Shown here in pieces: positions 1,143 to 64,000 of a DNA stretch of 64,000 nt. Each line of letters starts with the position of its first letter. The stretch's first letter is position 1. Both the position numbers and the translations under genes were made by a program. The notes beneath the pieces are model-generated. The model did not search any database. It saw nothing but the letters and a program-made list of their open reading frames with translations, and was not told the origin of the DNA. The stretch comes from Eledone cirrhosa (taxonomy: Eukaryota): assembly GCA_964016885.1 (NCBI GenBank), contig OZ024741.1:366668001-366732000 (forward strand). The letters run 5' to 3'.

Positions 1143-1642
1143 GTTAAGTCGAGTCAGAACACTCCACATTTCTGCTGACCCTCCATACATTATATAGTTC
1201 CCAGTGATCACCGAAATCTCCCGCAAGCATTTCTTCAGTGGCTTCATCAACAAAACCATCTGGCAGAAGTATTTTATCTTTTTCTAGGCTTCTTTTGTTA
1301 AAAGAAAATATTTAAAGAAAAAAAAGACTAAAATTTTAACTGAATACGGAAATACAAAATGTCGTGTTAAGATATTAGCAAGTAAAATTTCCACTGAAAA
1401 AAAATAAACAAAGTGGGTGTTGGTGAAGAAAGCAATGACTCAGCACTAGCTGATATACACAGGACTCAAGGCCGAGAACGATGGGTATTTTTAGACGCAG
1501 CTGAAGCCCGAGGCCTATCCACTAGAAACTACCAGAAATATTTAGTGGAATACGAAAAGTAACTCCAAACTATGTTGAGGTTGGGAAGAAGCAATTAATC
1601 TCATTGTATTCGACTACCAAATTCTAGCAAGAACATATGAAA

Positions 1643-1717
<75 letters not shown>

Positions 1718-1840
1718 AACGAATGTTTTTTATCCCACCTGGATAACCGGTTTCACAATTTCATGATTTTCAAAAGTTATAGTTATGTGAAATGGCAGAA
1801 GGTGGAGCTGGCAGTTTCAAACAAAATTTCAGCTTCTTTT

Positions 1841-1919
<79 letters not shown>

Positions 1920-2141
1920 CTACTAGGAGATACGTTGAATTTTAGATGTTTTCATGTTTTATACTCAATGTGTGTATTTATCTACACACCTGTGATTAAT
2001 CATGCACGGTATTTGTACAGTAATTTATACATCATATATTTCGGTTGCCTAATACACAATTGGGTGTAAACAAAATATAGGTTTTCAACTCTCCTGGTTT
2101 TGACAGATAAAAGTATGTAACATTATAATTGTCAGATCAGA

Positions 2142-2459
2142 GGGCGGTGGATTGGCAGTATCGGTAGAGAGTCGGGCGCCATGCTTTGCCGTGTAGAGTT
2201 ACGGCCCTTGCCATTCTGAGTTCAAATCCCGTTGAGGTTAACTTTGCCTTTCATACTTACGGGGTCGATAAAATAAAGTACCAGTAATGCACTGGGTAAT
2301 TGCTGGCCTTGTGCCTAAAGTAGAAACAATTATAATTGTCAGATCGGATCAAGTAAACTATGTTTCTATTGGTCTTTTTATTGCTGATACTATCTGTCAA
2401 TCTCAATTACTCATAGAACGGGGATGGATTTGAACTCAGAACGGAAATAAGAGAGAGTG

Positions 2460-2492
<33 letters not shown>

Positions 2493-3098
2493 AATCGACC
2501 CCAGTAATTGACTGATATGTTGTTTTTTTATTGATCTCGAAAGAATGAAAGGAAAAATCGATTTCGGCGGGATTTGAACTCAGAACTTAAAGAGCTGCAA
2601 AGCATGTTGTCCAAGGCTCTAGCGGTACTACCAATCCACTGATTTAATTGAAATAATGGTTTCTGATTTAGGCATCATGCCAACAATTTTGGAGGAGGGA
2701 AAAGTCGATTAAATCGACCCCAGTAAGTTACTTGCACTTTATTTTATCGACCCGGTAACGATGAAAGGCAAAACTAACCTCGGCGGGATTTGAACTCGGA
2801 CCGTAAAGGGCCGTAACTCTATGCTGTAAAGCATGGTATCCGACGCTCTACCGATACCGCCAATCCTCCGTCCTTAAATAATGGTTTCTTATATAGGCAC
2901 AAGCCCAGCAATTTTGGGGGAGAGGAAAGTCGATTAAATTGACCCCAGTGCGTGACTGGTACTTTATTTTATCGACCCCGTAAGGATGAAAGGCAAAGTT
3001 AAACTCGATAGGGTTTGAACTCAGATCCTGAAGGGCCGTAACTCTATGCTGCAAGCATGGCGTCCGACCCTCTACCGATACTGCCAATTCACTGCCTT
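2142..3098. mobile_element. SINE family 1 cluster (2142-2336 +; ~2494-2645, 2655-2873 and 2876-3098 -)
   Basis: Repeated matches to the same consensus; head-to-tail copies on the minus strand. Confidence 0.85.
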
Positions 3099-11747: not shown

Positions 11748-12105
11748 AAAAAGGGATGAAATCGAAAATGCAACTGAAGTCTTATTTTTTTTTTAAATAT
11801 ATATATTTATTTGGTTCCTTTACCGGTTTCGCAGTTCTTCTGCTTTTCAAAAGGTGAGTTGAGATGGAGGGTCTGTGGTTTTTCTCACATCCGATGTGAG
11901 AAAAACCACAGACCCTCCATCTCAACTCACCTTTTGAAAAGCAGAAGAACTGCGAAACCGGTAAAGGAACCAAATAAATATATATATTTTTAAAAAAAAT
12001 AAGACTTCAGTTGCATTTTCGATTTCATCCCTTTTTCTTTATACTTCCACTCGTGTAGGACACCTCGGTTATTTTTCATTTTGTAAAAAAAACCTCACTT
12101 TCTAA
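11741..12105 (+). mobile_element. Family C fold-back element (~150-bp arms 11741-12043 + tail)
   Basis: Palindrome centred at ~11892, which is why the same peptide appears as an ORF on both strands. (TA)n on both sides. A partial copy is at 49470-49560 and a degenerate one at ~23450-23525. Confidence 0.88.
11930..11967 (+). ncRNA. Minimal type I hammerhead ribozyme, U3-A8 core variant
   Basis: cctt-TTGAAAA-gcag aagaa ctgc-GAAA-c cg GTA-aagg: stems I and II pair, and stem III is the palindrome ACCGGT. Confidence 0.8.
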
Positions 12106-12120
12106 TATATATATATATAT

Positions 12121-12327
12121 ATTGTTATACTTTGGGAGGGTCATGTTGCCAATAAGAAACACACGCACCAGTGGCTTTCACTTCAATTTATTATAATAAA
12201 TTTATAAATTTATAAATTTCTGGTTGGTTGGTTGGTTCCACAACCAGATAGTTGTTTATATATAGTCATAGTTCTTTCGTCACACACGGTTTCAGATAAA
12301 GAATCTTGCTAAACAAATTCAGAAACG

Positions 12328-21268: not shown

Positions 21269-22090
21269 TACTTGGGGAGGGTCATATTTGCGTAATATTG
21301 CCAGAATTAATAACAGAACACACTCACTGTTTGGTTGGTTTTCGCTTCTCGCTGTCTTTTATATCTGCGATCTAACTTACTCGGTCCTCAATGTTGCCAT
21401 TGACTGACCGGCGGTCAAAAATAATACAGATACAATATAGACACAAACACATATATATATATATATAATTTACAAAAATCTTTCGTTGCACATCTGCAAC
21501 ATCGTCAGTGGTGTTATATTCATTGTTCCTCCTGTTGTGTTGTATGTCTACGCCATTTTTTATTCAGTCTGTCTATATATTTATTTTTTTATTTGCTTGT
21601 TTGTTTATCTTATTTTATTTTGTCTTCTTTGCGCATGCGTTTGCGTGTGTGTATAGTGTTATGTGTGATGTGTGACTAGTGTGTATAGTGTTGTGTGTGC
21701 TGGGTGACTAGTGTGTGTTTATGTGCTTGTTGTTATTGTGCTTGTGTATGTATTTATTTATCTTATTTTATTTAATTTTATTTACTTATTTATACTTCTC
21801 TTAGGTCAGTGTTGTTTGTTTGGGTGTTGTTGTTGTTCCACTCATTCTTTCTGTTTAGCTTTGGTCTTCTAATTTCTATTTCACTGGCCTCTCTGATTTG
21901 CCTATCTGCTGGGTCATTCCTATGTTTAGATATTATTCTAATTTCTATGTTGTCTATGTTACCGCCATGTTGTTGTCTAGCATGTTCGTATAGTACTGAC
22001 CCGTTTTGTCGTCCTTTTAGTTCCCCCCAGTGTTGGTCTATCCTTTCACCTATGCTACGAGCTGTCTCACCTATGTATGTTGTTGTCATA
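21265..22090 (-). mobile_element. 5'-truncated Penelope-like element: GIY-YIG C-terminal fragment + 3' UTR with HHR core
   Basis: ORF 21790-22089 reads YIGETARSIGERIDQH...RQIREASEI...PKLN. Minus-strand CTGACGA-t gttgca gatg tgcaac-GAAA at ~21481-21508. The terminus gttatacttggggagggtcat is shared with family D. Confidence 0.85.
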
Positions 22091-23263
22091 GAGAGAGAGA
22101 GAGAGAGAGATAGATAGAGAGAGAGAGAGAGAGAGAAATATATATATATTTCCCCTCTTTCCCTGAAGCAATCGGCTGTGTTCAGACCTGGAGAAGGATG
22201 GGCTCTACTGGATTATAAATGCCTAAGACCGTGTATCCTGGGGGCGCCCCTACGTCTACATCAAGAGATAAGGGTCCAAAGATACCAGATAATGGGAGAC
22301 ACTATTGGTTTGCAGCAAAAATTATGGTTCTTATTAAAGATTATTAGTTCCTTTATATGCCTCGTCTTGGACAATATAATCTATGACCAAAACCAATCAG
22401 ATTAACTATAATAACCATATACTTGCTATCCATTGAGAATCAAAGCATTATCGATTCGTGATCAAGACCTTTGTACATTAAAGCAAATACATTTCGATAA
22501 TTATCTATAATTGCTGAAATTACTCTGAAGTTAGAATATCTTCGATGTATATATTTGTGTGTATGTATGTACGTGTGCGTATGCATGTATGTATATGTGT
22601 AAGTGCATGTATTTCTGTTTGTATATGTGTATATGAGTGAATGTATGTCTGTATGTATGTTCGTATGTATGAATGAATGTATGTATGTATGTATGTATGT
22701 ATGTATGTATGTATGTATGTATGTATGTATGTATGTATGTATGTATATGTGTGTATCTATGCCTGCTTGTATGTATGTATGTATGTATGTATGTATGTAC
22801 GTATGTATGTACGTATGTATGTGTGTATGTATGTATGTATGTATGTATGTATGTATGTATGTATGTATGTATGGATGGATGCATGGATGCTTTTATGTAT
22901 GTATGTATGTATGTATGCATGTGTGTACGTATGTATGGATGATTGTATGTATGTATGTATGTTTGTATTATGAATGTATGTGTGTGTGTGTGCGTGCGAC
23001 CGAGCACGGTGGCATTTAATATCTGGTGAGATATAAAATCTACAGTTTATATCTGGTCAGTGTACATACGCTTGTCTGGTATCCGGAAAGATAATTACAA
23101 ACATATATATATGTGTGTGTGTGGTGTTGTGTGTGTGTGTGTGTGTAGTGAGAAAGAGAGAAAGAGAGACTCATTCATATATAGGTAAATACACACACAT
23201 ATATGTATAATGTAAATACAGATACATATATATATGTGTGTGTGTGTATATATATAAACACAG

Positions 23264-28048: not shown

Positions 28049-28476
28049 ACTTCAATTTATTATATATTTATAAATTTATAAATTTATAAATTTCTGGTTG
28101 GTTGGTTGGTTCCACAACCAGATAGTTGTTTATATATAGTCATAGTTCTTTCGTCACACACTCTGTGACCTCTTCAGTGACTGGGGATTCCTTTCTTTGT
28201 TTCTGTGCCTCTCCTTTGTTCTGTCCTACGCCATTTTGTTTCACACACAGAAACAAAATGGCGTAGGACAGAACAAAGGAGAGGCACAGAAACAAAGAAA
28301 GGAATCCCCAGTCACTGAAGAGGTCACAGAGTGTGTGACGAAAGAACTATGACTATATATAAACAACTATCTGGTTGTGGAACCAACCAACCAGAAATTT
28401 ATAAATATATAATAAATTGAAGTGAAAGCAACTGGTGCGTGTGTTTCTTATTGGCAACATGACCCTCCCAAAGTAT

Positions 28477-28482
<6 letters not shown>
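28049..28482 (+). mobile_element. Family D fold-back element with HHR
   Basis: Palindrome 28049-28423 centred at ~28245, continuing to gtataacaa then (TA)n. Confidence 0.88.
28310..28354 (+). ncRNA. Minimal type I hammerhead ribozyme (family D)
   Basis: agtca-CTGAAGA-g gtcaca gagtg tgtgac-GAAA-g aa CTA-tgact; 5-bp stem I and 6-bp stem II. Confidence 0.78.
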
Positions 28483-28535
<53 letters not shown>

Positions 28536-30819: not shown

Positions 30820-31324
30820 GTAGATAAATCTACCAAAATATACGGTAATGTCCAATCCGTATGAAGAACTCAATGTAATCCAAATATCATGAAAAGAGAA
30901 GATGTACTCAAAAAAATTTTTGATGAAAATCACAGGAAAACAGAGTCAAGATAACTTAATATAAACAATGAATAAAACCAAATAAACAGTTCCTTATATT
31001 AAAAAATTCATCATTTTACGATCGTTTCTAGGATATATATGTGTGTTGGTATGTATATCATATAGATCTATGTAAAAGTTTTACAAACTATCAGAGGGAA
31101 TATACATACCTAGACATATATATGCTGTCTTCAGAAATAATTATTTCTGAAGACAGCATATATATGTCTAGGTATGTATATTCCCTCTGATAGTTTGTAA
31201 AACTTTTACATAGATCTATATGATATACATACCAACACACATATATATCCTAGAAACGATCGTAAAATGATGAATTTTTTAATATAAGGAACTGTTTCTT
31301 TGTTTTTATTCATTGTTTTTATTA

Positions 31325-31325
<1 letters not shown>
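30820..31325. mobile_element. Family G short fold-back element: ~185-bp arms, zero spacer at 31140/31141, tail 30820-30955
   Basis: Near-perfect palindrome centred on gaaataa|ttatttc. HHR on + at 31141-31270 (CTGAAGA 31147, GAAACGATCGTA 31253-31264). Both ends lie in (TA)n. Confidence 0.85.
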
Positions 31326-31393
<68 letters not shown>

Positions 31394-46319: not shown

Positions 46320-46675
46320 TTTCATTTCTTCTTCTTTTTTTTTCTTTTTCTTCTTTTTCTCCTTTTTCTTCTTCTTCTTCTTCTTCTTCTTCTTCTTCTT
46401 CTTCTTCTCCTTCTTCCTTCTTCTTCTTATTATTATTATTATTCGTCTTCTTCTTCCACTTAATCCTGGGAGTGTTGTGGGGGCAAAGTCCTCAGACACT
46501 CCTTCCAACAGGTCCTGTCCGAATCAACTGTCTCCAACTGATCCGGCTGGATTCCCAAGCAAGACCAGCCAAGCTCATGGATGTTATCCAACCATCTTGC
46601 TCGAGTTCTACCCCTGGGTCTCCTACCGGTTGGTTTTTGCCAGTAAAATCTGTCCAGCGATTCTTTCCTAAGATA
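46320..46675 (-). mobile_element. RTE-clade LINE 3' fragment with (GAA)n/(TAA)n tail
   Basis: Peptide KPTGRRPRGRTRARWLDNI...DRTCWK, stop codon, then a simple-repeat tail. Confidence 0.82.
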
Positions 46676-47342
46676 TTCTAACCACAAGCCCATAGTATCG
46701 AAGCTATCAATTTTGAAAATGTTATCCTTAAGAGATTGATTAAGAAAAACATTGTGAGAGGCACAAATCAAACGGTTTGTATATAAATGTTGGTGTGTTT
46801 GATGGAGTTGTCGTTCCTGATGAATGAACATATTTTAACTTTTGCAGGAATTATTCTACACCATGTGGTATCTCATAGACCTGTAACCCCTGATGGAATC
46901 GTAGGAGCCCTGCACCATTGTGACATTTTAAACCTGGTGGAGCTAATTCCTCTCCTGACCTCATCATGACCAATTTCTTCTGCAGAATGAGAGAGTTGAA
47001 GAAAAGAAATAAGGAAGAGAGATAGAGGAAGAATCGACCCAGTACTGGACTAGTACATTACTTACCGACTACGAAATGATGAAAGACAAAATTGACCATG
47101 GCGGATTTGCAGAAACCTCGAACAATTGTTGTAAAACAGTCTATCCAACGTTCTAACGACTCTGTTATTTTGCCTTCATTCTACACACACACACTTCGAC
47201 CTGCTAAAAGTAAGACCGTAGATTTTCTCTGACAACATCCTATAAAAGGACACTTATGTAGGCTACACTGTATTTGTACACAAAATTGAAAATATCTCGA
47301 GAATATATCACTGCAATATCTCGAGAATCTCGTACCTCAATA

Positions 47343-51080: not shown

Positions 51081-51546
51081 TTTCGTTTCTGAATTTGTTT
51101 AGCAAGATTCTTTATCTGAAAACGTGTGTTGAAACCGATATTGTTATACTTTGGGAGGGTCATGTTGCCAATAAGAAACACACGCACCAGTTGCTTTCAC
51201 TTCAATTTATTATAAATTAAATTTATAAATTTAGGAATTTATAAATTTCCGGTTGGTTGGTTGGTTCCACAACTAGACGATTCTTCATATATTGTCAAAG
51301 TTCTTTCGTCACACATTCTGTGACCTCTTCAGTGACTGTGGATTCTTTTCTTTGTTTTTGTGAAGAGGTCACAGAATGTGTGACGAAAGAACTTTGACAA
51401 TATATGAAGAATCGTCTGGTTGTGGAACCAACCAACCAACCGGAAATTTATAAATTCCTAAATTTATAAATTTAATTTATAATAAATTGAAGTGAAAGCA
51501 ACTGGTGCGTGTGTTTCTTATTGGCAACATGACCCTCCCAAAGTAT

Positions 51547-51554
<8 letters not shown>
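51081..51554. mobile_element. Family D fold-back element (194-bp arms 51138-51331 / 51361-51554, tail 51081-51137)
   Basis: Near-perfect inverted repeat homologous to 28049-28482, between (TA)n tracts. Confidence 0.88.
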
Positions 51555-51633
<79 letters not shown>

Positions 51634-51680
51634 TATATATATATATATATATAAAAATATATATATATATATATATAGTA

Positions 51681-52434
51681 TGTAGATAAATCTACCAAGA
51701 GTTTACGGTAGTGTCCAGTCCGTATGAAGAACTCAATGTATTCCGGATATCATGGAAAGAAGAGATGTAATGAAAAACCACTTTCGGTGAAAGATAAACG
51801 GTATACAGAGTCAAGATAAAATATTAAACAAATAATGAATAAACAATTCCTTATATTAAACAAAAAAAGTTCATTATTTAACGATCGTTTCTAGGATATA
51901 TATGTGTGATAGAATTGGTATGCATATTCAACAGATCTATGTACAAAATTATACAAAATTATACAAATTATCAAGATTAAATATACATACCAAACACATA
52001 TATACGCCGTCTTCAGAAATAATGAAGTATATTTATTGTGTATATATGAGTGTGTGTATGTATGTATATGTGTATATATATGCATGTATATATGTATGTG
52101 TATGCGAATGTGTGTACGTATATGTGTATGTATGTGTATATATGTGTATATATGTATGTATATGTGTATATATAGGAATATATATATGTATATATATATG
52201 TATATATATATATATATATGCGTGTGTATGTATGTGTGTGTATGTGTGTTGTGTATATATATGTATGTCTCTCTATTTATATGTCTATCTCTGTATCTAT
52301 GTGATATATGTGTGTGTATGTGCATGTATGCACATATATGTGTTTATGTGTATATATGTGTATGTATGTATATATGCGTGTGTGTATGCACACATATTTA
52401 TATGTGAGTGTGTATATGTGTCTGTGTATATGTA

Positions 52435-52486
<52 letters not shown>

Positions 52487-52586
52487 GGTGTCTATGTGTG
52501 AATATATGTCTATATTCATATGTGTGTATATGTGTATGTATATGTTTGTATGTATATATATATATATGTATATATATATATGTATG

Positions 52587-52621
<35 letters not shown>

Positions 52622-52768
52622 ATATATATATATATATGTATATTATTTTTTATTATTATAATATAACTTATGTGTATGTGTGTATAAGTGAAGTTGTGTA
52701 TATGTATATAATATATGTATATATAAATGTAAAAAAATATATATATATATGTGCATGTCTGTTTTTTA

Positions 52769-52809
<41 letters not shown>

Positions 52810-52917
52810 GTGTGTATATATATGTATATGTGGGTGTTTGTATGTGTATTTATGGTGGTATGAGTGTGTGATATCTATGTATATATATATATATATATAT
52901 GTATGAGTGTATGGTTG

Positions 52918-52959
<42 letters not shown>

Positions 52960-53394
52960 TATATGTATATGTGTATGTGTGTATATATATATCTCTATTA
53001 ATGCGTGTATATATATATGTGTATGTGTGTATATATATATCTCTATTAATGCGTGTGTGTATGTATATACATATGCCTTTTTATTATTATTTTTATTTGT
53101 ATGTCTGAGTTAGGTGTGGTTGTAGTGATTTTTTTTATGTATATACGCATATATGGATGCGTATGTATTTGTATATATGAGTATAAGTAAGTGCATATGT
53201 ATGTATGATTAAATTTCTAATTCTATGTATGAATATACATGTATATATATGTGTGTATGTAAGTTGTGTGTGTATGTATGTATATGTCTATGTGTGTATG
53301 CATATATATATATGTATATCGATGTACGTATATGTATGTACATGTATGTCTATGTATGTGTGTATGTATGTGTATGTATATTTAGGTGTATGTG

Positions 53395-53447
<53 letters not shown>

Positions 53448-53689
53448 ATATATATATGTATATATCTTTATTATTTATTTTTTTTATATATATGTGTATG
53501 TGTGTATGTGTTGCGTGTGTGTGTGTGTGTGTGTATATATATCTTTATATATGTGTATGTGTATGTTCGTGTAGATGTATGTGTGTGTATGACTTTATAT
53601 GTATGTGTGTATGTATGTATGCGTAAATATTTCTATATGTGTGTACATGTATGTATGTGTATATATCTGTATGTGTATGTATGTGTATT

Positions 53690-53728
<39 letters not shown>

Positions 53729-53770
53729 GTATGTTATATATATATATATATGTATATGTATATGTGTGTG

Positions 53771-53803
<33 letters not shown>

Positions 53804-54367
53804 ATATATGTTTTTCTATTTGTATATGTATGTGTGTATAGGTATATACCTTTCTCTTTGTATTTCTATGTTGTGTGATAGTGTAGTGGTGTTTGTATGT
53901 ATATACCGATATATAGATGCGTAAGTATTTGTCTGTATGTATATATGTAAGTCTGTATATATTTATGTGTATATATAGCTATGTATGTGTATATCTGTAT
54001 GTATATTAGTATGTAAGTGTTGTATATGTGCATGTATGTGTGTAGTTATATATATCTGTGTCTGTATAGTATGTGTGATTATATGTATATGTGTGTGTAT
54101 ATGTACGTGTATATGCATATATATGTATATATATGTGTATATATATATATATATATGGTTGTATATATATGTGTATGTGTATTTGTATGTATATGTGTAT
54201 ATGTATGTATGTGTGTATATGTATAGGTTTGTATATGTGTGTGTATGTATGTTCTTAGTGTGGATGTGTGTATATGTATGTATGTGTTTATATATGTGTG
54301 TATATTTATGTATGGATGTGTGAGTGTCTATGTGTATATATATGTATGTTTTTTATATATATATGTA

Positions 54368-54412
<45 letters not shown>

Positions 54413-55307
54413 ATATATGTGTATGTGTGTATATTTATTTTCTTGATATATTTCTTTTTTTCTTTTTTCTTTTTTCTTTTTTCTGTTTTTCTTTCTATTC
54501 TTTCCTCCTTAATGTTTTATTTATTATATTTTATTTTTTTATTTGTTTTATTTTTCTTAGTTTATAGATACATTTATATTAAGCAGTCTGCTCAGACCGT
54601 TAAAAACTGACCCCTCCCCCCCATCCCACCTAATTTCTGTATCTTGATCTGAAAATGTGTGTGCCAGTGTTTTATGTGAGTGAATTAATATCCATGTGCT
54701 TATGATTTTATATCCACATATATAAATGTGAGTGGGGGTGTGTGTGTGTTTGTATGTTCGTGGTTATGTGTATATTTATGCATATACGCGCGTGTATGTG
54801 TGATTGTACGGATGTGAGTGAGTATGAAAAAATATATTTATATGCTTAATTTCATAAGTGTCAATACGCATCTTATTTGTACATTATAAACTCACAGAGA
54901 CATTAACCTTGAAATTTTGTATTTGCATCCATCCTTTTAGTATGCGTATACAAATTATACATACATTTTTGTTAAAATATGTGTAAGGGTTTTACATGTA
55001 TATACACACACCGAACTGCATTTAACCCTTTGTGTTTTCATTGGTCAATTTTTGTTCCCAAACGGACCTGAAATTTTGAATTGTTGTTATTATCAATAAA
55101 TATACTTCATTATTTCTGAAGACGGCGTATATATGTGTTTGGTATGTATATTTAATCTTGATAATTTGTATAATTTTGTATAATTTTGTACATAGATCTG
55201 TTGAATATGCATACCAATTCTATCACACATATATATCCTAGAAACGATCGTTAAATAATGAACTTTTTTTGTTTAATATAAGGAATTGTTTATTCATTAT
55301 TTGTTTA

Positions 55308-55316
<9 letters not shown>
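51681..55316 (+). mobile_element. Family G: 5'-truncated PLE 3'-UTR copy with an inverted terminus plus tail
   Basis: 223-bp inverted arms at 51816-52038 and 55094-55316. Tail 51681-51815 matches 30820-30955. The body is homologous to 56064-58425. Flanked by (TA)n. Confidence 0.85.
55106..55262 (+). ncRNA. Type I hammerhead ribozyme with very long stem II (family G)
   Basis: Stem I ttcattattt/aaataatgaa; CTGAAGA at 55116; ~118-nt self-complementary insert; GAAA at 55241; palindromic stem III ACGATCGT; GUU cleavage triplet. Confidence 0.75.
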
Positions 55317-55889: not shown

Positions 55890-56041
<152 letters not shown>

Positions 56042-57086
56042 GCATGTATATATATATATTTATATAAAATATTAAATAAATAATGAATAAACAATTCCTT
56101 ATATTAAACAAAAAAAGTTCATTATTTAACGATCGTTTCTAGGGTATATATGTGTTATAATTGGTATGCATATTCAACAGATCTATGTACAAAATTATAC
56201 AAAATTATACAAATTATCAAGATTAAATATACATACCTAACACATATATACGCCGTCTTCAGAAATAATGAAGTATATTTATTGATAATAACAACAATTC
56301 AAAATATCAGTTCAAAATTGACCAATGAAAACACAAAGGGTTAAAAGCAGTTCGGTGTGTGTATATACATGTAAAATCCTTACACATATTTTACAAAAAT
56401 GTATGTATAACTTGTATACGCATACTAAAAAGATGGATGCAAACACAAAATTTCAAGGTTAATATCTCTGTAAGCTTAAAATGCGCTGATAAGATGCGCA
56501 TTGATACTTATGGAGTCAAGCATATAAATATATTTTTTTTCATACTCACACATATCAGTATAATCACACATACATGCGCGTATATGCATAAATATACACA
56601 TAACCACGAACATACAAACACACACACACCCCCACTCGCATTTATATATGTGGATATAAAATCATAAACACATGGATATTAAATCACTCACATAAAACAC
56701 TGGCACACACATTTCAAGATCAAGATACAGAAATTAGGTGGGAGGGGGGGGAGGGGTCAGTATTCAATTGTCTGAGCAGACTGCCTAATATAAATGTATC
56801 TATAAATTAAGAAAAATAAAAAAATAAAACAATAAAATATAATAAATATAATATAATATACATACACATACAGATATATATACATACATACATGTACGCG
56901 CACATAGAAATATTTACGCATACACACATACACACATACATATACAGTCATACACACACATACACTTACACGAACATACACATACACATATATAAAGATA
57001 TATATATACACACACACACGCAACACATACACACATACACATATATATAAAAAATAAATAATAAAGATATATATCCATATACATAT

Positions 57087-57131
<45 letters not shown>

Positions 57132-57220
57132 TATACATATACATACACATACATCTAAATGTACATACACATACATACACACATACATGTACATACATGT
57201 ACATACATATACGCACATCG

Positions 57221-57271
<51 letters not shown>

Positions 57272-57586
57272 TAGACATATAGATACATACACACACAGCT
57301 TACATACACACATATATATATATAGATGTACATTCATACATAGAATTAGATATATAATCATACATACATATGCACCTACTTATACTCATATATATAAATA
57401 CATACGCTTCCATATATGTGTATATACATAAAAAACACTACAACCTCACCTAACTCAGACATACAAATAAAAATAATAATAAAAAAAATAATAAAAAGGC
57501 ATATGTATATACATACACACACGCATTAACAGAGATATATATATATACACACATATATACACATATATATATATACACATATATAT

Positions 57587-57631
<45 letters not shown>

Positions 57632-57718
57632 TACACTCATACATATATATATATATATATATATAAACATATATATCCACACACTCATACCACCATAAAT
57701 ACACATACAAACACCCAC

Positions 57719-57791
<73 letters not shown>

Positions 57792-57943
57792 TAAAAAACA
57801 GACATGCACATATATATATATATATATATTTTTTTACACTTATATATACACATATTATATACACATACACAAACTCAACTTATACACATATACACATAAG
57901 TTATATTATAATAATAAAGAATAATATACATATATATATATAC

Positions 57944-57975
<32 letters not shown>

Positions 57976-58086
57976 ATACATACATACACATACATACATA
58001 CACATAAACATATACATACATAAATACACACATACGAATAAAGACATATATTCACACATAGACACCTATATATATATATATATATC

Positions 58087-58151
<65 letters not shown>

Positions 58152-58425
58152 ATATACACACTCACATATATATATGCGTATGTGTGTGTGCGCACATACA
58201 CATATATACACACACACATACAAACACACACAAACACATACATATGCATACGTGCACACACACACACATATATCACATAGATACGAAGATAAACATATAA
58301 ATAGAGAGACATACATATATATACAACACACATACACATACATACATACATACGCATATACATATACATACATATATATACATATATATATTCCTATATA
58401 TACAAGCATACACATACATACACAT

Positions 58426-58837
58426 ATGGTGGCTGCCAACTCGTTTTCGAGTACGGCCACTACTTTATATCCATGTAGGAGAACCCCTACCGATGCGCTG
58501 AACGAATGTGACTTTAGTCCAGCCAGCGACTTGAAAACTCTGGTACAAAGACTACACTTGTGACCATTATTGACACATAGTGCAGGGCCCATGGTACCAT
58601 GTGATGACAAGTGCAGAGAGATCTCCAGATATAAAGCAATGCCTGTGCTGTGAAGCTTTTATAGTGAGCAAAGGCACTGCACTAAGCCAGTCCCACTCTC
58701 TTAACCAAGATGATATTTACCAAAAAGAAGAACAGGTCAACATCATTGGATACCATCAGGGTTGCAGGTGTTATATCAGAGTTTTCCTTCTCCTAGAATT
58801 CTGCCTTGACAAAGGCTAAGGGGTCATCTCTCCCGGT
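58426..58837 (-). mobile_element. Second, 5'-truncated copy of the same RTE-derived element
   Basis: Direct repeat of 59708-60121 with few differences. Encodes HKCSLCTRVFKSLAGLKSH. Confidence 0.75.
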
Positions 58838-58976
58838 ATATACATGTATACATACATACATGCACATATACACACATATATACATACATGCACACATATA
58901 TACATACATACATACATACACATATACATACATACATACACATATACGTACATACATACACATATACATACATATA

Positions 58977-59008
<32 letters not shown>

Positions 59009-59707
59009 CATACATATATACATATACATACATATACACACATACATATATACATACATACATATACACATACATACATACACATATACATACATATATA
59101 TATACATACATATACACATACATACATATACATATACATACATATACACATACATACATACATATACATACATATATATACATACATACATACATACACA
59201 CACATACATACATATACATATACATATATACATACATATACATACACATATACACATACATACATACACATACATACATATACATACATACATACATATA
59301 CATACATATACATATACATACATACATATATATATACATACATATATACACATATACATACATATACATACATACATATATATACATACACACACATACA
59401 TACATATACATACACACATACATACATACATATACATACATATACATACATATATACACATATACATACATATATATACATACATACATATATATACACA
59501 TACATACATACATACATATATATACACATACATACATACATATATATACACATACATACATACATACACACATATACATATACATACATACATATACACA
59601 TATACATACATATATACACATACATACATACATACATATACATACATACATACACACAGATACATACATATATATATACATACATACATACATATACATA
59701 CATACAT
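58838..59707. repeat. ~870-bp compound CATA/CA/TA microsatellite
   Basis: Almost G-free on the + strand; lies at the 3' side of the RTE-derived element. Confidence 0.95.
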
Positions 59708-60317
59708 ATGGTGGCTGCCAACTCGTTTTCGAGTACGGCCACTACTTTATATCCATGTAGGAGAACCCCTACCGATGCGCTGAACGAGTGTGACTTTTTA
59801 GTCCAGCCAGCGACTTGAAAACTCTGGTACAAACACTACACTTGTGACAATTACTGACACATAGTGCTGGGCCCATGGTACCAGGTGACGACAAGTGCAG
59901 AGAGATCTCCAGATATAAAGCAATGCCTGTGCCGTGAAGCTTTTATAGTGAGCAAAGGCACTGCACGAAGCCAGTCCCACTCTCTTAACCAAGATGATAT
60001 TTACCAAAAAGAAGAACAAGTCAACATCATTGGATACCATCAGGGTTGCAGGTGTTATATCAGAGTTTTCCTTCTCCTAGAATTCTGCCTTGACAAAGGC
60101 TAAGGGGTCATCTCTCCCGGTGATTTTGGATGGCCATTGACTCTTAAGAGCTCCTTTGCCCTTTGACAGGTTTTGTTTTTAGTCCTGCAGGATGTCCAAA
60201 GTCACCCTCCTCACCAAGAAACCTTGGTGGGGTTGCCAGTTTAGTCGCCAACGACCCGACCATGGGACAGGTTGTACTGGGATACATGTTACCAGTAGCA
60301 CCAACTGGTGACCAACC
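59708..60317 (-). mobile_element. Short internally deleted RTE-type retroelement (5' UTR-like part fused to C2H2-encoding 3' end)
   Basis: Minus strand has the RTE 5'-UTR-like motif ctaggagaaggaaaactctga. The 3' part is homologous to the HKCSLCTRVFKSLAGLKSH coding segment of the adjacent copy. A long TATG/TG tail follows. Confidence 0.7.
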
Positions 60318-61393
60318 ATATATATATATACATATATATATATATACATACACATATATATACATATATATATATATACATATATATATACATATATATA
60401 TATATACATATATATATACATATATATATATATATACATATATATACATACATATATATATACATACATATATATATACATACATATATATATACATATA
60501 TATACATATATATATGTATATATATGTATATACATACACATATATACACATACATACACATATACATACAACACATTCACATACACATACATATATAATG
60601 CATATATATACATACATATACATACATATGTACACTCATATATACACACGCAATCTTACATTCATATTTGCATGCGCATATATGTATTTTTATATTTAGA
60701 TATAAATACCCAAACCTATATAGACACCTACCTACATATATATTCATACATAGACGCTTACAAATACAGATGATAATAGTATGGGGGAAAGGGGGGGTTT
60801 GGAGAAGGGGATCAAAGTAAATATATGTTTCAAGAAACATATAATATTTTCCGTATCTTTATTCAATGTATGTTCTTACATATTTTCAGTGCTAGGAAAT
60901 ACGACAAACAAGAACTAAGGCAAAATCTATGCATCTCAAAATAAATAAGTATACCATTAATCATATGTTAACTAAACCAAAGATAGTCAACATATTGATT
61001 TCTAATGTGTAAATTAGTTAGGTTTATAATATTTGAAGCAGAATTTTGAAGTCAAACAGTAGTAGATTATTAATTACAGTATAACTAAATTAAAGTTAAT
61101 AACGTTATGGTATCAATATTAGGAAATGAATTTAGTAATAGGGAAAAGAAACCCAAATAAAAATAAAATAAAGTATTACATCGGTAGTAGCATATAAATT
61201 ATATGTTAACTAAATTAAAAATTATATATTTATTTCAATAGTATATGTTAATTAGTATATGTTAATTAGGTATACAATACATAAAGCAGATATTTTATTT
61301 CATCAATAGCATAATATAATTATATGCAAATAGAAATCAAAATTAATACGCATACATATACATATACATACACATACACATATACATACATAT

Positions 61394-61430
<37 letters not shown>

Positions 61431-61963
61431 TACACATATATACATACATACAGATACACATACACACACACACATACACATACACATATACATATACATA
61501 TCTTTTTCAAAAAATTGCACAGAATATATTAACTAGGTATATATCCAAAACACATCACATTCTATGATTACATGACATTCTGCAATTCGTCTGTATAAGG
61601 ATACTAATTTTAAGCAAATTAAAAATACAATTTTTAGGTTGATTAAAACTAAAACCAAATAATAAATATATTTCCAAAATGTATATTAATTAGGTCTATA
61701 ATACTAAAAATTATTTCTCTGTCATTGGATACACGATATTATTTTGTTATATTTTATCTGTAAAAGAGTTATAATAAAAGGTTTAAATAAATTAAAATTA
61801 ATCTATAAATTAAATTACTAAGTATATATTAGTAATATTTAAAGGTTTTTCACAATTTATGATTACATAATATTTTATATTCTCATCTGTAATAAAATAT
61901 TAATTAAATTAAATTTATAGGTTAACTAACATTTAAATTAAATTAATTTCTAGAATAATGTTA

Positions 61964-63571
61964 TTAATTAGGTTTATAATATTTAAATGTTTTTTTTAGT
62001 TTATGATTACACGATATAATTAATTCCTGTCGTTTATTTAATAAGATATCCTTAGACTTCATTATTTCAAATAGTTCTTGGGAACATAATCTACATTCCT
62101 TTCTATTATTTTGATAAGGGGTGGCTCTTTTGAGCACACTCCAGGTCAAATCATATTTTATATTCTTATTTTTATAACTATTGATTTTTTCTGCTAGAGA
62201 TGTTGTATTAGCCAGTGCGGCATTTTTAAAACTATGCTTGTGGGTATTAAACCTTGTCTTAAAATTGTTAGAGGTAGCTCCTATATATGAGCAAATAGAA
62301 TCTTTAGTTATAACATTACATTTATAGACTATGTTGTTAACAAGACAATTCCCTTTTAATGGGCAGTTTGCTTTGTTTCTACAGTTACATCCTTTCGTTA
62401 ATTCTGTATTTGAGGAGATATTATGGTTAATTTGATGTACTGGTGGTATACTTATGGTTTTTTTACATTTATATGCATTATATGCACTTATATTTTGTTT
62501 TATGTTATTTGTTGTAGAGTATGAGAATTTAACTGTAGACCTATTTAAGATTTGATGGTATTTGTGGTTTGGCGGGAAGTTTTTCTCAAGGATATAAAAA
62601 AATTTTTTAGCAATATTATCCTTAACTTGTAAATTAAAAGGAGCATTATACCAAGTAACTCGTCTATTACGGTTTCTATGTTGTTTATTATTTTTATTAT
62701 TTTTATAGGTTGTATCGTGATTTTTACTAGGAGGATTAATGTTAATGATCTCACCACAACTATTTTTAGTTATATTTGTAGATTTAGGTGTTTTATCTTT
62801 TTTATTAGGAGTTTTATTATTAATATTTATTATAGTTGTATGATGAGTAGTTTTTTGAGGGTTACTATACTTTATATTAGAAGATTTAGTATTTTGGGGT
62901 ATATTGTGGGTGGCATTTAGGTGTGTACTTTTCATTTGGTGTTTGTTGGTAATATTATGCTGTATGCTTTCAGTATTTTTAGTAGAAGGTATATACTCTA
63001 ATCTATTTTTGTGGCCACTTCTATCTAGAGCTTCATTATAAAAGGTCGCATTTTTATCAAATACATCTTGGTTAGAAGAAAGGTTAGAAATTCTAAGTGA
63101 TATATTATATGCAAGGTTTTTAAGGATAGATTTAGGGTGATTAGATTGTGAGTGTATGTAATGTAAGTTTTGGTTAGGTTTATGGTAAGGTTGGTAGATA
63201 CCCGTAGCTAAATCTAAAGTTATATCTAGGAAATTTACTACTTTACTTGTTTTTTCAAAAGTAATATTAAGATTATAATAGTCTTTAAGGAAAGTTCTAA
63301 TATGTTTTTTGTTTTTTTCGATTTCTGAAAGGCTAAGGTTGTTAGAAAGAAGAAGACAGTCATCACGATATAAACCACCTTTGAGGTGGGGAAAAGAGGC
63401 ATTTATGTTGAAAAGGAGAAAGAGGCCCACAAGATCAGTAATTTGGGCGGAATCGCTTGAACCCATAGTAATATCAAAAAGATTACTGTATGTGTTTCTG
63501 GTCCAGTATTCATTCTGAAATTCAATAAGTGTTAGTCTAGCATGTGTAATAATGTTAATGTCATCCGAAGT
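61964..63571 (-). CDS. 5'-truncated Penelope-like (Naiad-like) reverse transcriptase + GIY-YIG endonuclease ORF
   Basis: Uninterrupted ~535 aa. It has the RT motifs FDITMGSSDSAQITDLVG and YRDD, then FLDITLDL/YHKP, an Asn/Lys/Thr-rich insert and RRVTWYNAPF. A Cys linker CNCRNKANCPLKGNCL precedes the GIY-YIG motif IVY...YIGATSNNFKTR and a C-terminal CRLC. The first ~17 aa of the called ORF (63572-63622) come from the inverted arm. Confidence 0.93.
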   Translation of the reverse strand, partial: TSDDINIITHARLTLIEFQNEYWTRNTYSNLFDITMGSSDSAQITDLVGLFLLFNINASFPHLKGGLYRDDCLLLSNNLSLSEIEKNKKHIRTFLKDYYNLNITFEKTSKVVNFLDITLDLATGIYQPYHKPNQNLHYIHSQSNHPKSILKNLAYNISLRISNLSSNQDVFDKNATFYNEALDRSGHKNRLEYIPSTKNTESIQHNITNKHQMKSTHLNATHNIPQNTKSSNIKYSNPQKTTHHTTIININNKTPNKKDKTPKSTNITKNSCGEIININPPSKNHDTTYKNNKNNKQHRNRNRRVTWYNAPFNLQVKDNIAKKFFYILEKNFPPNHKYHQILNRSTVKFSYSTTNNIKQNISAYNAYKCKKTISIPPVHQINHNISSNTELTKGCNCRNKANCPLKGNCLVNNIVYKCNVITKDSICSYIGATSNNFKTRFNTHKHSFKNAALANTTSLAEKINSYKNKNIKYDLTWSVLKRATPYQNNRKECRLCSQELFEIMKSKDILLNKRQELIISCNHKLKKTFKYYKPN

Positions 63572-64000
63572 TTTTAAAAATGCCGCACTGGCTAATACAA
63601 CATCTCTAGCAGAAAAAATCAATAGTTATAAAAATAAGAATATAAAATATGATTTGACCTGGAGTGTGCTCAAAAGAGCCACCCCTTATCAAAATAATAG
63701 AAAGGAATGTAGATTATGTTCCCAAGAACTATTTGAAATAATGAAGTCTAAGGATATCTTATTAAATAAACGACAGGAATTAATTATATCGTGTAATCAT
63801 AAACTAAAAAAAACATTTAAATATTATAAACCTAATTAATAACATTATTCTAGAAATTAATTTAATTTAAATGTTAGTTAACCTATAAATTTAATTTAAT
63901 TAATATTTTATTACAGATGAGAATATAAAATATTATGTAATCATAAATTGTGAAAAACCTTTAAATATTACTAATATATACTTAGTAATTTAATTTATAG
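63572..64000 (+). mobile_element. Inverted copy of the PLE 3' region (end of endonuclease + 3' UTR), running off the window
   Basis: Reverse complement of 61803-62231 with no differences noticed by eye. ORF 63552..63839 repeats the C-terminal peptide FKNAALANTT...KYYKPN. Confidence 0.93.

Follow-up and report, generated by a model that had tools for sequence, protein, structure and literature searches.

The window (the whole stretch of 64,000 nucleotides analysed here) carries a Hydra-clade Penelope-like element (PLE) in the form of a young insertion that is truncated at the 5' side and arranged back-to-back; the tail of the element, 3.8 kb long, is shared, in the same order, by copies throughout the genome, and the repeats within this tail likely arose and lengthened in the source lineage of the element. 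We place the probability of this reading at about 80%. The element itself is of a known kind, a Hydra-type Penelope; its long, repeat-filled tail sets it apart from published Hydra elements.

Encoded protein, 3' terminus and anatomy of the insertion

Strand and end point of the ORF agree with the original prediction (Table 1), while the label "Naiad-like" given there had to be replaced, as domain order and motifs are those of Hydra. In the full-length family protein P0001 (813 aa), which served as the reference for motif positions, a single ORF codes for a reverse transcriptase (RT) of the telomerase-like kind, followed by a low-confidence insert of about 100 residues (477–572 in the structure model), a CxCx5C linker and a GIY-YIG endonuclease in C-terminal position, with CxxC and CxH close to the C-terminus and without a CCHH motif. 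The characteristic motifs comprise RWR (position 37), which is of the RWK type, DKT (115) in place of DKG, YRDD (346), CxCx5C (673) and YIG (707), and D115 and K116 are invariant across 77 aligned proteins. Neither a GxKF/Y motif nor a Cx2-5CxxC linker was found in P0001, CxCx5C standing in place of the latter. The structure model (pLDDT 85) has its best fold matches in TERT, and a retron RT matched the family protein with an E value of 0.0014; no match was obtained for P0001 in Pfam, where two of four homologs gave weak GIY-YIG matches, nor for the family protein in a PDB sequence search. The printed protein of Hydra-1_Obim can be clearly aligned to the family protein by eye. Judged from domain order, motifs and this comparison, the element is a member of the Hydra clade. 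An assignment to Naiad was rejected on account of the C-terminal endonuclease, the cysteine linker after the RT, the missing DKA and the presence of a hammerhead-like motif. Pairwise ORF differences over 15 copies amount to 1,760 synonymous vs. 884 non-synonymous ones; a search of the tail for a hidden ORF yielded exclusively repeat-derived frames of at least 120 aa.

Table 1. Features of the focal insertion and of the neighbouring sibling copy.
Feature	Position	Strand	Remarks
5'-truncated ORF assigned to the Hydra clade	61964..63571	minus	stop codon 61964-61966; RT from about residue 280
Start of inverted second arm (ORF end, stop, first tail bases)	63572..64000	plus	same insertion
Decayed tandem array of ORF end	60900..62015	minus	lower boundary approximate
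First compound TA/TG microsatellite, within array unit 4	61330..61495	minus	not in older lineages
Poly-C landmark and 5' part of inherited repeat core	60530..60810	minus	
Secondary insertion between 14-bp direct repeats	58428..60529	minus	
Main part of inherited degenerate TA/TG core	56860..58427	minus	in collinear order in sibling and 38 genomic copies
Conserved 3' region; its TG repeats are older and decayed	56290..56859	minus	
Predicted type I hammerhead	56118..56272	minus	
Fixed 3' end 1, running into (AT)n	56064..56117	minus	64 nt beyond predicted cut
Sibling copy, long-tail subfamily	52039..55316	plus	cut off at core start; ends at end 1
Inverted arm of sibling: hammerhead and 138-nt leader	51680..52038	minus	finishes at fixed end 2

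The second arm of the focal insertion is identical to 61803-62231 at all 429 positions of 63572-64000 and runs about 3.7 kb past the window, to window-equivalent positions ~67,620 (end 1) and ~67,760 (end 2), as mapped from L031 (identity in 1434/1434 and 2329/2330 aligned bases). Without its secondary insert the focal tail measures about 3,784 nt; a full unit comprises 6,673 bp in L057, and the spacing of same-strand tandem units is 6.4-7.2 kb in most pairs. The sibling carries a block of about 700 bp (53758-54500) that is missing from the focal subfamily, and its inverted arm is identical to 55094-55316 (223/223).

An interruption of the tail had been proposed at 58426-60317 and attributed to RTE-derived inserts. 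The interruption exists, albeit with the bounds 58428-60529 between direct repeats at 60530-60543 and 58414-58427. From its 5' side it consists of 212 nt of new TA/TATG repeat, a full 0.6-kb SINE-like element (59710-60317), 873 nt of TATG-type repeat and a 5'-truncated second SINE-like copy (58428-58836). A derivation from RTE is at most putative: a search for an autonomous partner of the SINE-like element, which is young and multi-copy (98-100% identity in 40 of 40 scored matches), gave no hit in a frame of more than 71 aa among 150 scored protein matches. The element carries a CxxC...HxxxxH-stop remnant, which we take to resemble RTE ends. None of 40 fetched copies contains the insert, and the empty site noted originally in the sibling is seen more exactly in L031, L062, L064, L065 and L069. 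Secondary inserts are also present in L036, L146 and L180.

For the 3' terminus, motif and fold point to a hammerhead-like, putatively self-cleaving motif, as had been proposed, even though Rfam gave no hammerhead at E ≤ 10 for 56040-56330 and none among the best 150 of 403 matches for the whole window. CUGANGA, GAAA and NUH elements and stems I–III occur in the circular order of type I: a 10-bp stem I, CUGAAGA at 56262, a 116-nt stem II hairpin, GAAA at 56139 and a palindromic 2-bp stem III, with the predicted cut after 56128 (fold z −7.2). Among 16 variants the core is invariant, the triplet is GUU or GUA, 99% of 616 cells are paired, one pair is changed on both sides, and stem I shows a UA>CG change in two rows; the G10.1-C11.1 pair is replaced by a C.A mismatch followed by G-U or A-U. 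A 26-mer reaching from the core into stem I has 6,745 exact genomic matches, and a 22-mer from the conserved 3' region has 1,924. Past the hammerhead, two fixed 3' ends lie on (AT)n, 138 nt apart; out of 99 hammerhead ends, 55 were classed as reaching (AT)n at either end 1 or end 2, 26 run into an ORF and 18 are of other kinds. Insertion into (TA)n is again a trait of Hydra.

Inheritance and probable growth of the repeat-filled tail

The central proposal, a family whose 3' region of about 4 kb, microsatellite included, is duplicated as a unit ending in a hammerhead-like motif, is supported. Forty copies, drawn from the closest 150 matches and including five tandem pairs as well as the focal copy's own second arm, were fetched. 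Instead of ending soon after the stop codon, 39 of them run for 2.6-4.5 kb to the same predicted hammerhead end (2,573-4,514 nt in 38 copies measured), the fortieth entering a run of N; an anchor in the conserved 3' region is present in 38 of the 40, and homologous core tracts differ by a few repeat units. The landmarks within the apparent microsatellite are collinear between copies, as had been claimed: the sibling core (52140-53757) and the reverse complement of 56860-58425 share 375 unique 16-mers, 339 of which form one collinear chain, compared with chains of 0-11 for nine other TA/TG-rich tracts of the window, at most 77 in order-8 Markov simulations of the sibling and at most 132 after 40-nt block shuffling. 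Core distance tracks ORF distance (Mantel r 0.94, p 0.001, 15 copies). The repeat core is inherited with the element.

Related lineages form a graded ladder of tail lengths, in which they stand as sister lineages, not as proven ancestors. From stop codon to hammerhead, lineage A measures 494-719 nt without repeat (10 arms; one more of 1,030 nt with an insert) and lineage B, where the ORF end is reached in 16 of 30 loci, 1,081-1,991 nt with a repeat of 192-353 bp, the site of which is repeat-free in lineage A with homologous flanks on both sides. The corresponding lengths are 2,407-2,477 nt in L106/L201, 3,188-3,683 nt in L198/L196/L103 and 3,460-4,306 nt in young copies, with one of 2,365 nt; a second Hydra family of the genome has about 1.0 kb after the stop. 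In lineage B, in L106 and L201 and in the young copies, the core likewise begins with the poly-C landmark. The length of the tail is correlated with ORF-tail identity to the focal copy (Spearman 0.93, 46 non-independent rows). FastTree with distant outgroups places the root of A, B and C on the C side (support for A+B 0.905) and site counts give 7 for C, 5 for A and 1 for B, so that lineage A may have lost its core. Intermediate steps are represented by one to three copies each and the pure-TA state by L201 alone, the tract of which could be a later local expansion. Growth has not been monotonic, since the youngest subfamily has lost about 700 bp and does not reach the length of its parent.

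Over its first 1.1 kb, the tail consists of decayed tandem repeats of the ORF end, at least six units of ~110-157 nt, each made up of the last ~17 codons and ~95 nt past the stop. The last 52 nt of the ORF score 46 against the focal tail (maximum of 500 shuffles, 36) and 79 against the tail of the older copy L106 (maximum 37). The first tract forms a length series of 13, 65, 76, 90, 96, 128, 138 and 168 nt, from a 13-nt seed in L106 through 65 nt of pure TA in L201 to 76-168 nt with 6-34 TG in younger copies. Judged from such sequence series, the TA/TG repeats likely arose and lengthened inside the source lineage. Tandem units would be transcribed, and RT would start at either of the two fixed sites past the hammerhead and copy the whole tail, by analogy with Poseidon (Frangieh et al., 2024; PMC11167929). 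Source copies residing in a slippage-prone genome may gain duplications and repeat expansions, and new source copies would pass these gains on because tail length is weakly constrained. Contigs of four sequencing runs, compared over the stretch from hammerhead through leader and ORF to the tail start only, showed no informative joints; they cover 30 of 30 bins for two runs of unknown kind and 3 and 1 bins for two runs guessed to be RNA.

Among the alternatives, A-to-I editing of element dsRNA, written back by reverse transcription, might have driven a one-way TA-to-TG change and so shaped the compound repeats, which we consider possible at best. The back-to-back arms would yield long dsRNA, and the first tract gains 0, 6, 12, 13, 24, 26 and 34 TG with zero CA inside the repeat, but slippage can amplify one early TG, so that these counts are not independent. 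On the branch from L106/L201 to L198/L196/L103, 16 of 36 pre-core changes are A>G vs. 4 T>C (p 0.006, post hoc); all 16 have A or U on the 5' side (p 0.14), 14 fall within the 204 nt adjoining the new tract, none occurs in 234 ORF sites, and several of the sites are A in the ORF-end paralogue. Such asymmetry does not persist, however, on the following branch (9 vs. 8), in the post-core region (10 vs. 11) or among the changes private to young copies (3 A>G vs. 7 T>C in the unique tail, 6 vs. 12 in the ORF). In the core, private A>G changes (25/520) occur at the same per-base rate as G>A (18/348), which is what slippage would produce; private interior interruptions number 3 TG vs. 1 CA, and random genomic DNA shows local polarity as well (90 vs. 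47). Editing at every jump was rejected, not being seen in the private changes of young copies. Still somewhat more doubtful is the wider picture of a source lineage that would constitute a dated record of microsatellite life cycles, with pure (TA)n born in the tail and editing, fixed by the element's own RT, producing one-way TG/TATG compound repeats that are spread genome-wide.

Contribution to the microsatellite load and other origins of the tail

That the tail is a self-seeding device, by which the element spreads its own (TA)n targets and to which the genome owes much of its microsatellite load, appears unlikely. Tails do contain about 15 (TA)≥6 tracts each, some twice the genomic density, their tandem-repeat cover is 0.23-0.33 vs. 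0.106, and secondary inserts occur in the focal copy and the three further ones named above. Nevertheless, 1,300-1,900 core-bearing arms account for 0.45-0.66% of the bases in simple repeats (1.0% if there were 3,000 arms), short ends predominate (6,745 matches to the hammerhead vs. 1,304 at the core start), and lineage A spread with a repeat-free tail. The family share of genomic (TA)≥6 tracts is roughly estimated at 0.3-0.7%. The suggestion that the family helps build the microsatellite load is therefore weak, and the family is, on a rough estimate, a minor source of about 1% or less. As to new (TA)n targets for itself, one full-length copy does lie in an older one, inside its first TA tract (L050/L110); with 56 free ends, a single such case can be due to chance and amounts to no enrichment, and a junction DNA search for a second self-insertion found only the query in 40 scored of 967 candidates. 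The tail repeats are best read as cargo, making up ~0.5-1% of the genome's simple-repeat DNA, and as occasional landing sites for this Hydra family and other elements.

3' transduction, in which read-through as far as a hammerhead end located downstream would have captured host flanking DNA, is improbable, and for the core flanks largely refuted. It would be feasible in a genome with about 10% simple repeat, where short hammerhead-only ends are very common, but the beginning of the tail derives from the ORF end, both core flanks have their homologues in lineage A's short tail, and the sequence before the hammerhead aligns in all lineages. Chance TA/TG resemblance, local inverted duplication or segmental duplication can be dismissed: unmasked low-complexity alignments come easily and the focal and sibling copies, oppositely oriented, are separated by 750 nt, yet copies with exact common ends and unrelated flanks are dispersed on many contigs, core distance follows ORF distance, and the sibling has a closer match in L041 (chain 735) than in the focal copy, which disposes of a local inverted duplication.

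With the tail read as inherited cargo, the family shows that Hydra elements, described as compact, are able to transport and duplicate about 4 kb of RNA, most of it of low complexity. Repeat masking would break such an element into an ORF, a "simple repeat" and an orphan end. Along the graded lineages, which constitute a replicated series, microsatellites can be traced at fixed sites from birth through growth to interruption and a role of RNA editing can be tested, and a ceiling is set on the contribution of this family to the genome's microsatellites.

Comparison with known systems

Among the papers listed in our literature search, there was no account of a repeat-filled PLE tail and none that joined any three of the subjects Penelope-like elements, long 3' UTR, microsatellite seeding and retrotransposon; Repbase/Dfam and the Zenodo library of Bonar (2026) could hold such a family. 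For octopus, Hydra clade and Penelope-like elements, Craig et al. (2021; PMC8557442) was the only paper found, and the portion of Bonar (2026; PMC13282606) available to us does not name Hydra.

With the Hydra clade, e.g., Hydra-1_Obim, the present family shares the order RT then GIY-YIG, RWK-like and DKT motifs, CxCx5C, CxxC plus CxH, a sense 3' hammerhead, (TA)n insertion and an inverted 5' arm (PMC8557442). It differs in the low-confidence insert of ~100 residues, in a unit of 6.4-7.2 kb vs. generally <3 kb (27 listed families have 1,080-3,045 bp in all), a descriptive, not a diagnostic trait, in a tail of 3.5-4.5 kb with inherited compound repeats, in a hammerhead stem II of 116 nt, listed Hydra motifs having 80-100 nt with flanks, and in a gap of 138 nt between the two ends vs. 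the usual 30-40 bp (PMC8557442). Naiads share the (TA)n preference and tandem and inverted structures; their diagnostic traits, i.e., an N-terminal endonuclease (EN), a CxC domain between EN and RT, DKA and no canonical hammerhead, do not apply here (PMC8557442). As in PLE hammerheads of type I (Cervera and de la Peña, 2014; PMC4209133), the core is conserved, an unpaired base precedes stem II and the short palindromic stem III is suited to a dimer; in contrast, stem II has ~27 pairs plus a large apical part vs. 4-8 bp, and the G10.1-C11.1 pair is missing. Anolis Poseidon likewise has AT-rich targets and two fixed reverse-transcription starts past the hammerhead that set an optional tail, established in vitro for this element of another clade and deduced here from genomic ends; in the present family they would lie within the leader, not the ORF (PMC11167929). 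CR1-L3 and Rex LINEs seed microsatellites in snakes (Pasquesi et al., 2018; PMC6050309) and L1/Alu contain proto-microsatellites (Grandi and An, 2013; PMC3812793), so that the distribution of microsatellites or their seeds by a retrotransposon is a common feature. While a terminal repeat or short seed is concerned in these cases, kilobases of mature internal compound repeat are copied here, which age within the source lineage and make up a small genome-wide share (PMC6050309; PMC3812793).

Structure of the focal insertion

With regard to overall architecture, the open frame, long repeat-bearing tail and predicted hammerhead end described in the original prediction are borne out, and other genomic copies likewise extend from stop codon to hammerhead. 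Among 40 copies drawn from the closest 150 in the 3.0-Gb assembly holding the window, a set that counts the partner arm of the focal copy and five pairs in tandem, 38 carry the exact hammerhead core 2,573-4,514 nt past the stop (median 3,761). Of the other two, one terminates likewise but with a single-base change in its hammerhead core, and the second runs into an N stretch. The inverted arm of the focal copy ends ~3.7 kb past the window and matches the forward arm at 1434/1434 and 2329/2330 positions. The interruption proposed for the focal tail is present, but its bounds (see table) are not 58426-60317; it lies between 14-bp direct repeats and is missing in 40/40 fetched copies. Based on the identity of the arms, the locus is a single young back-to-back insertion, one arm of which was later hit by the insert.

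Features of the window discussed in the text (positions in the window)
Feature	Position	Strand	Remark
Stop of reading frame	61964	minus	
Predicted hammerhead	CUGAAGA 56262; GAAA 56139; predicted cut after 56128	minus	motif + fold
Start of inverted arm	63572-64000		
Secondary SINE-like insert	58428-60529		
Protein insert, P0001 residues 477-572	~62680-62980		N/K/T/H-rich, low confidence, between RT and linker; frame maintained
Miniature back-to-back insertion	30821-31330		older lineage of same Hydra family
Different inverted-repeat family	51138-51560; 12105-12286; 28049-28533		in TA repeats
Short frames	21790-22212; 46460-46834	minus	resemble remains of a GIY-YIG endonuclease from another PLE and a LINE ORF end

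Inheritance and probable growth of the tail

The degenerate TA/TG core of the tail shares 375 unique 16-mers between the focal copy and the second copy in the window, of which 339 are collinear, as against maxima of 11 in nine unrelated TA/TG tracts, 77 in Markov simulations and 132 in block shuffles; the proposed collinearity thus exceeds that of shuffled repeat. In the 15 of 24 intact copies whose core could be delimited, distances between cores track those between ORFs (Mantel r 0.94, p 0.001), and homologous tracts of young copies vary by a few units. The first 1.1 kb of the tail is a decayed array with a unit of the last 17 codons plus ~95 nt of tail, and long-type tails contain a decayed internal duplication of 640-770 nt, partially lost in the youngest subfamily. 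In the tail of one copy (L069), the motif TGTANATA, which we take to resemble a Pumilio element, occurs 34 times in sense and 4 times in antisense orientation, probably as a by-product of the repeat.

Three related lineages differ in the distance from stop to hammerhead. In lineage A (ORF tail 83-86% identical; 20 loci) it is 494-719 nt without repeat in 10 arms, and 1,030 nt in one further arm that carries an insert. In lineage B (89-94% identical; ORF end reached in 16/30 loci) the distance is 1,081-1,991 nt and usually 1.2-1.4 kb; a repeat of 192-353 bp follows a poly-C landmark, and the sequence on either side of this repeat can be aligned to the repeat-free site of lineage A. Within lineage C, the distance is 2,477 nt in L106 and 2,407 nt in L201, 3,188-3,683 nt in L198, L103 and L196, and 3,460-4,306 nt in young copies, plus one at 2,365 nt; one set of 20 loci added to this series reached an ORF end in 4/20. 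The lineages nest in order of tail length in an ORF-tail tree drawn from the midpoint, but outgroup rooting leaned, equivocally, to C versus A+B. Because the outgroup elements are short, as is the branch of B, we favour growth of the tail along C.

The first tract comprises 13 nt in L106 and 65 nt of pure TA in L201; in later copies it spans 76, 90, 96, 128, 138 and 168 nt and includes between 6 and 34 TG. Of the 36 pre-core changes on one branch, 16 are A>G and 4 are T>C (p 0.006, for one contrast among four, noticed post hoc in the alignment), and 14 of the 16 are packed into 204 nt adjoining the new tract. Since no A>G excess occurs on the next branch, in the post-core region or among private changes, we do not read this as steady editing; a single editing event, fixed in a source copy, is possible.

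Contribution to genomic simple repeat

Exact anchors along the tail occur 796, 1,304, 821 (a subfamily-limited count) and 1,924 times, then 6,745 times at the hammerhead; reversed controls gave 0. Twenty arbitrary 10-kb stretches contain 10.6% simple repeat (bootstrap 6.9-14.7%) and, per stretch, 22 (TA)n tracts of at least six units. We estimate that 1,300-3,000 core-bearing arms supply 0.45-1.0% of repeat bases, leaving out older lineages, whose cores are small. The element makes some contribution to the microsatellite load, but its proposed role as a builder of that load was overstated. Self-insertion into a tail tract was seen at 1 among 56 free ends: a full-length copy (L050:7076 / L110:7951-8275) is seated in the tail of an older copy, within the first of that tail's TA tracts.

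The 0.6-kb SINE-like insert of the focal tail brings 1,085 nt of flanking TA/TATG repeat, absent from the empty site, and its family lies within such repeats at 8/8 loci viewed. This family, which is young, abundant and often tandem, may give rise to more new microsatellite than the Hydra tail does.

Predicted hammerhead, 3' ends and clade assignment

The hammerhead of the focal copy is a prediction with a stem II of 116 nt and no Rfam match. The region folds with z -7.2, and enforcing the catalytic core costs 1.2 kcal/mol. Across 16 chosen variants, pairing holds in 99% of 616 cells versus 24-59% in slid controls, with both partners changed in one pair and a single partner in nine; as the 16 rows are related, this is modest evidence. 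The miniature insertion in the window has a GUA-triplet hammerhead motif and both ends in TA, and 8/8 fetched close inverted pairs (L091-L098) are built alike, with a fold-back near stem I. The different inverted-repeat family shows a hammerhead-like CTGAAGA...GAAA with short stem II, and a lineage B tail (L183) holds a decayed duplicate of pre-hammerhead sequence with stem I and a CTGAGG remnant.

With the C-terminal 161 aa as query, the best 150 scored matches are 98-100% identical. An intact copy encodes 813 aa (P0001) with RWR 37, DKT 115, YRDD 346, CxCx5C 673, YIG 707, CxxC 771 and CxH 799; its predicted structure (pLDDT 85) best matches TERT. Craig et al. (2021; PMC8557442) assign RWR/DKT/CxCx5C/YIG/CxxC/CxH to Hydra and describe Naiad as carrying DKA and its endonuclease at the N-terminus while lacking a canonical hammerhead, so that the label 'Naiad-like' was wrong. 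A second Hydra family in this genome extends ~1.0 kb beyond the stop (12 copies, L111-L122). Its open frame has 713 residues with ~44% identity to P0001. The family is TG-biased (83 TG versus 36 CA), and CAGAAGA forms the core of its hammerhead-like end.

Judged by its motifs and by an alignment made by eye with the printed Hydra-1_Obim protein, the element is placed as a long-tailed variant within the known Hydra clade, published families of which span 1,080-3,045 bp. It has two fixed 3' ends, 138 nt apart and each on (AT)n, with a small TTTC-AC[C/G]-GAAA hairpin 16-24 nt past each; the first hairpin keeps its stem in lineages A and B with a changed loop. In this the genomic ends resemble the pair of start sites that PMC11167929 demonstrates for Poseidon.
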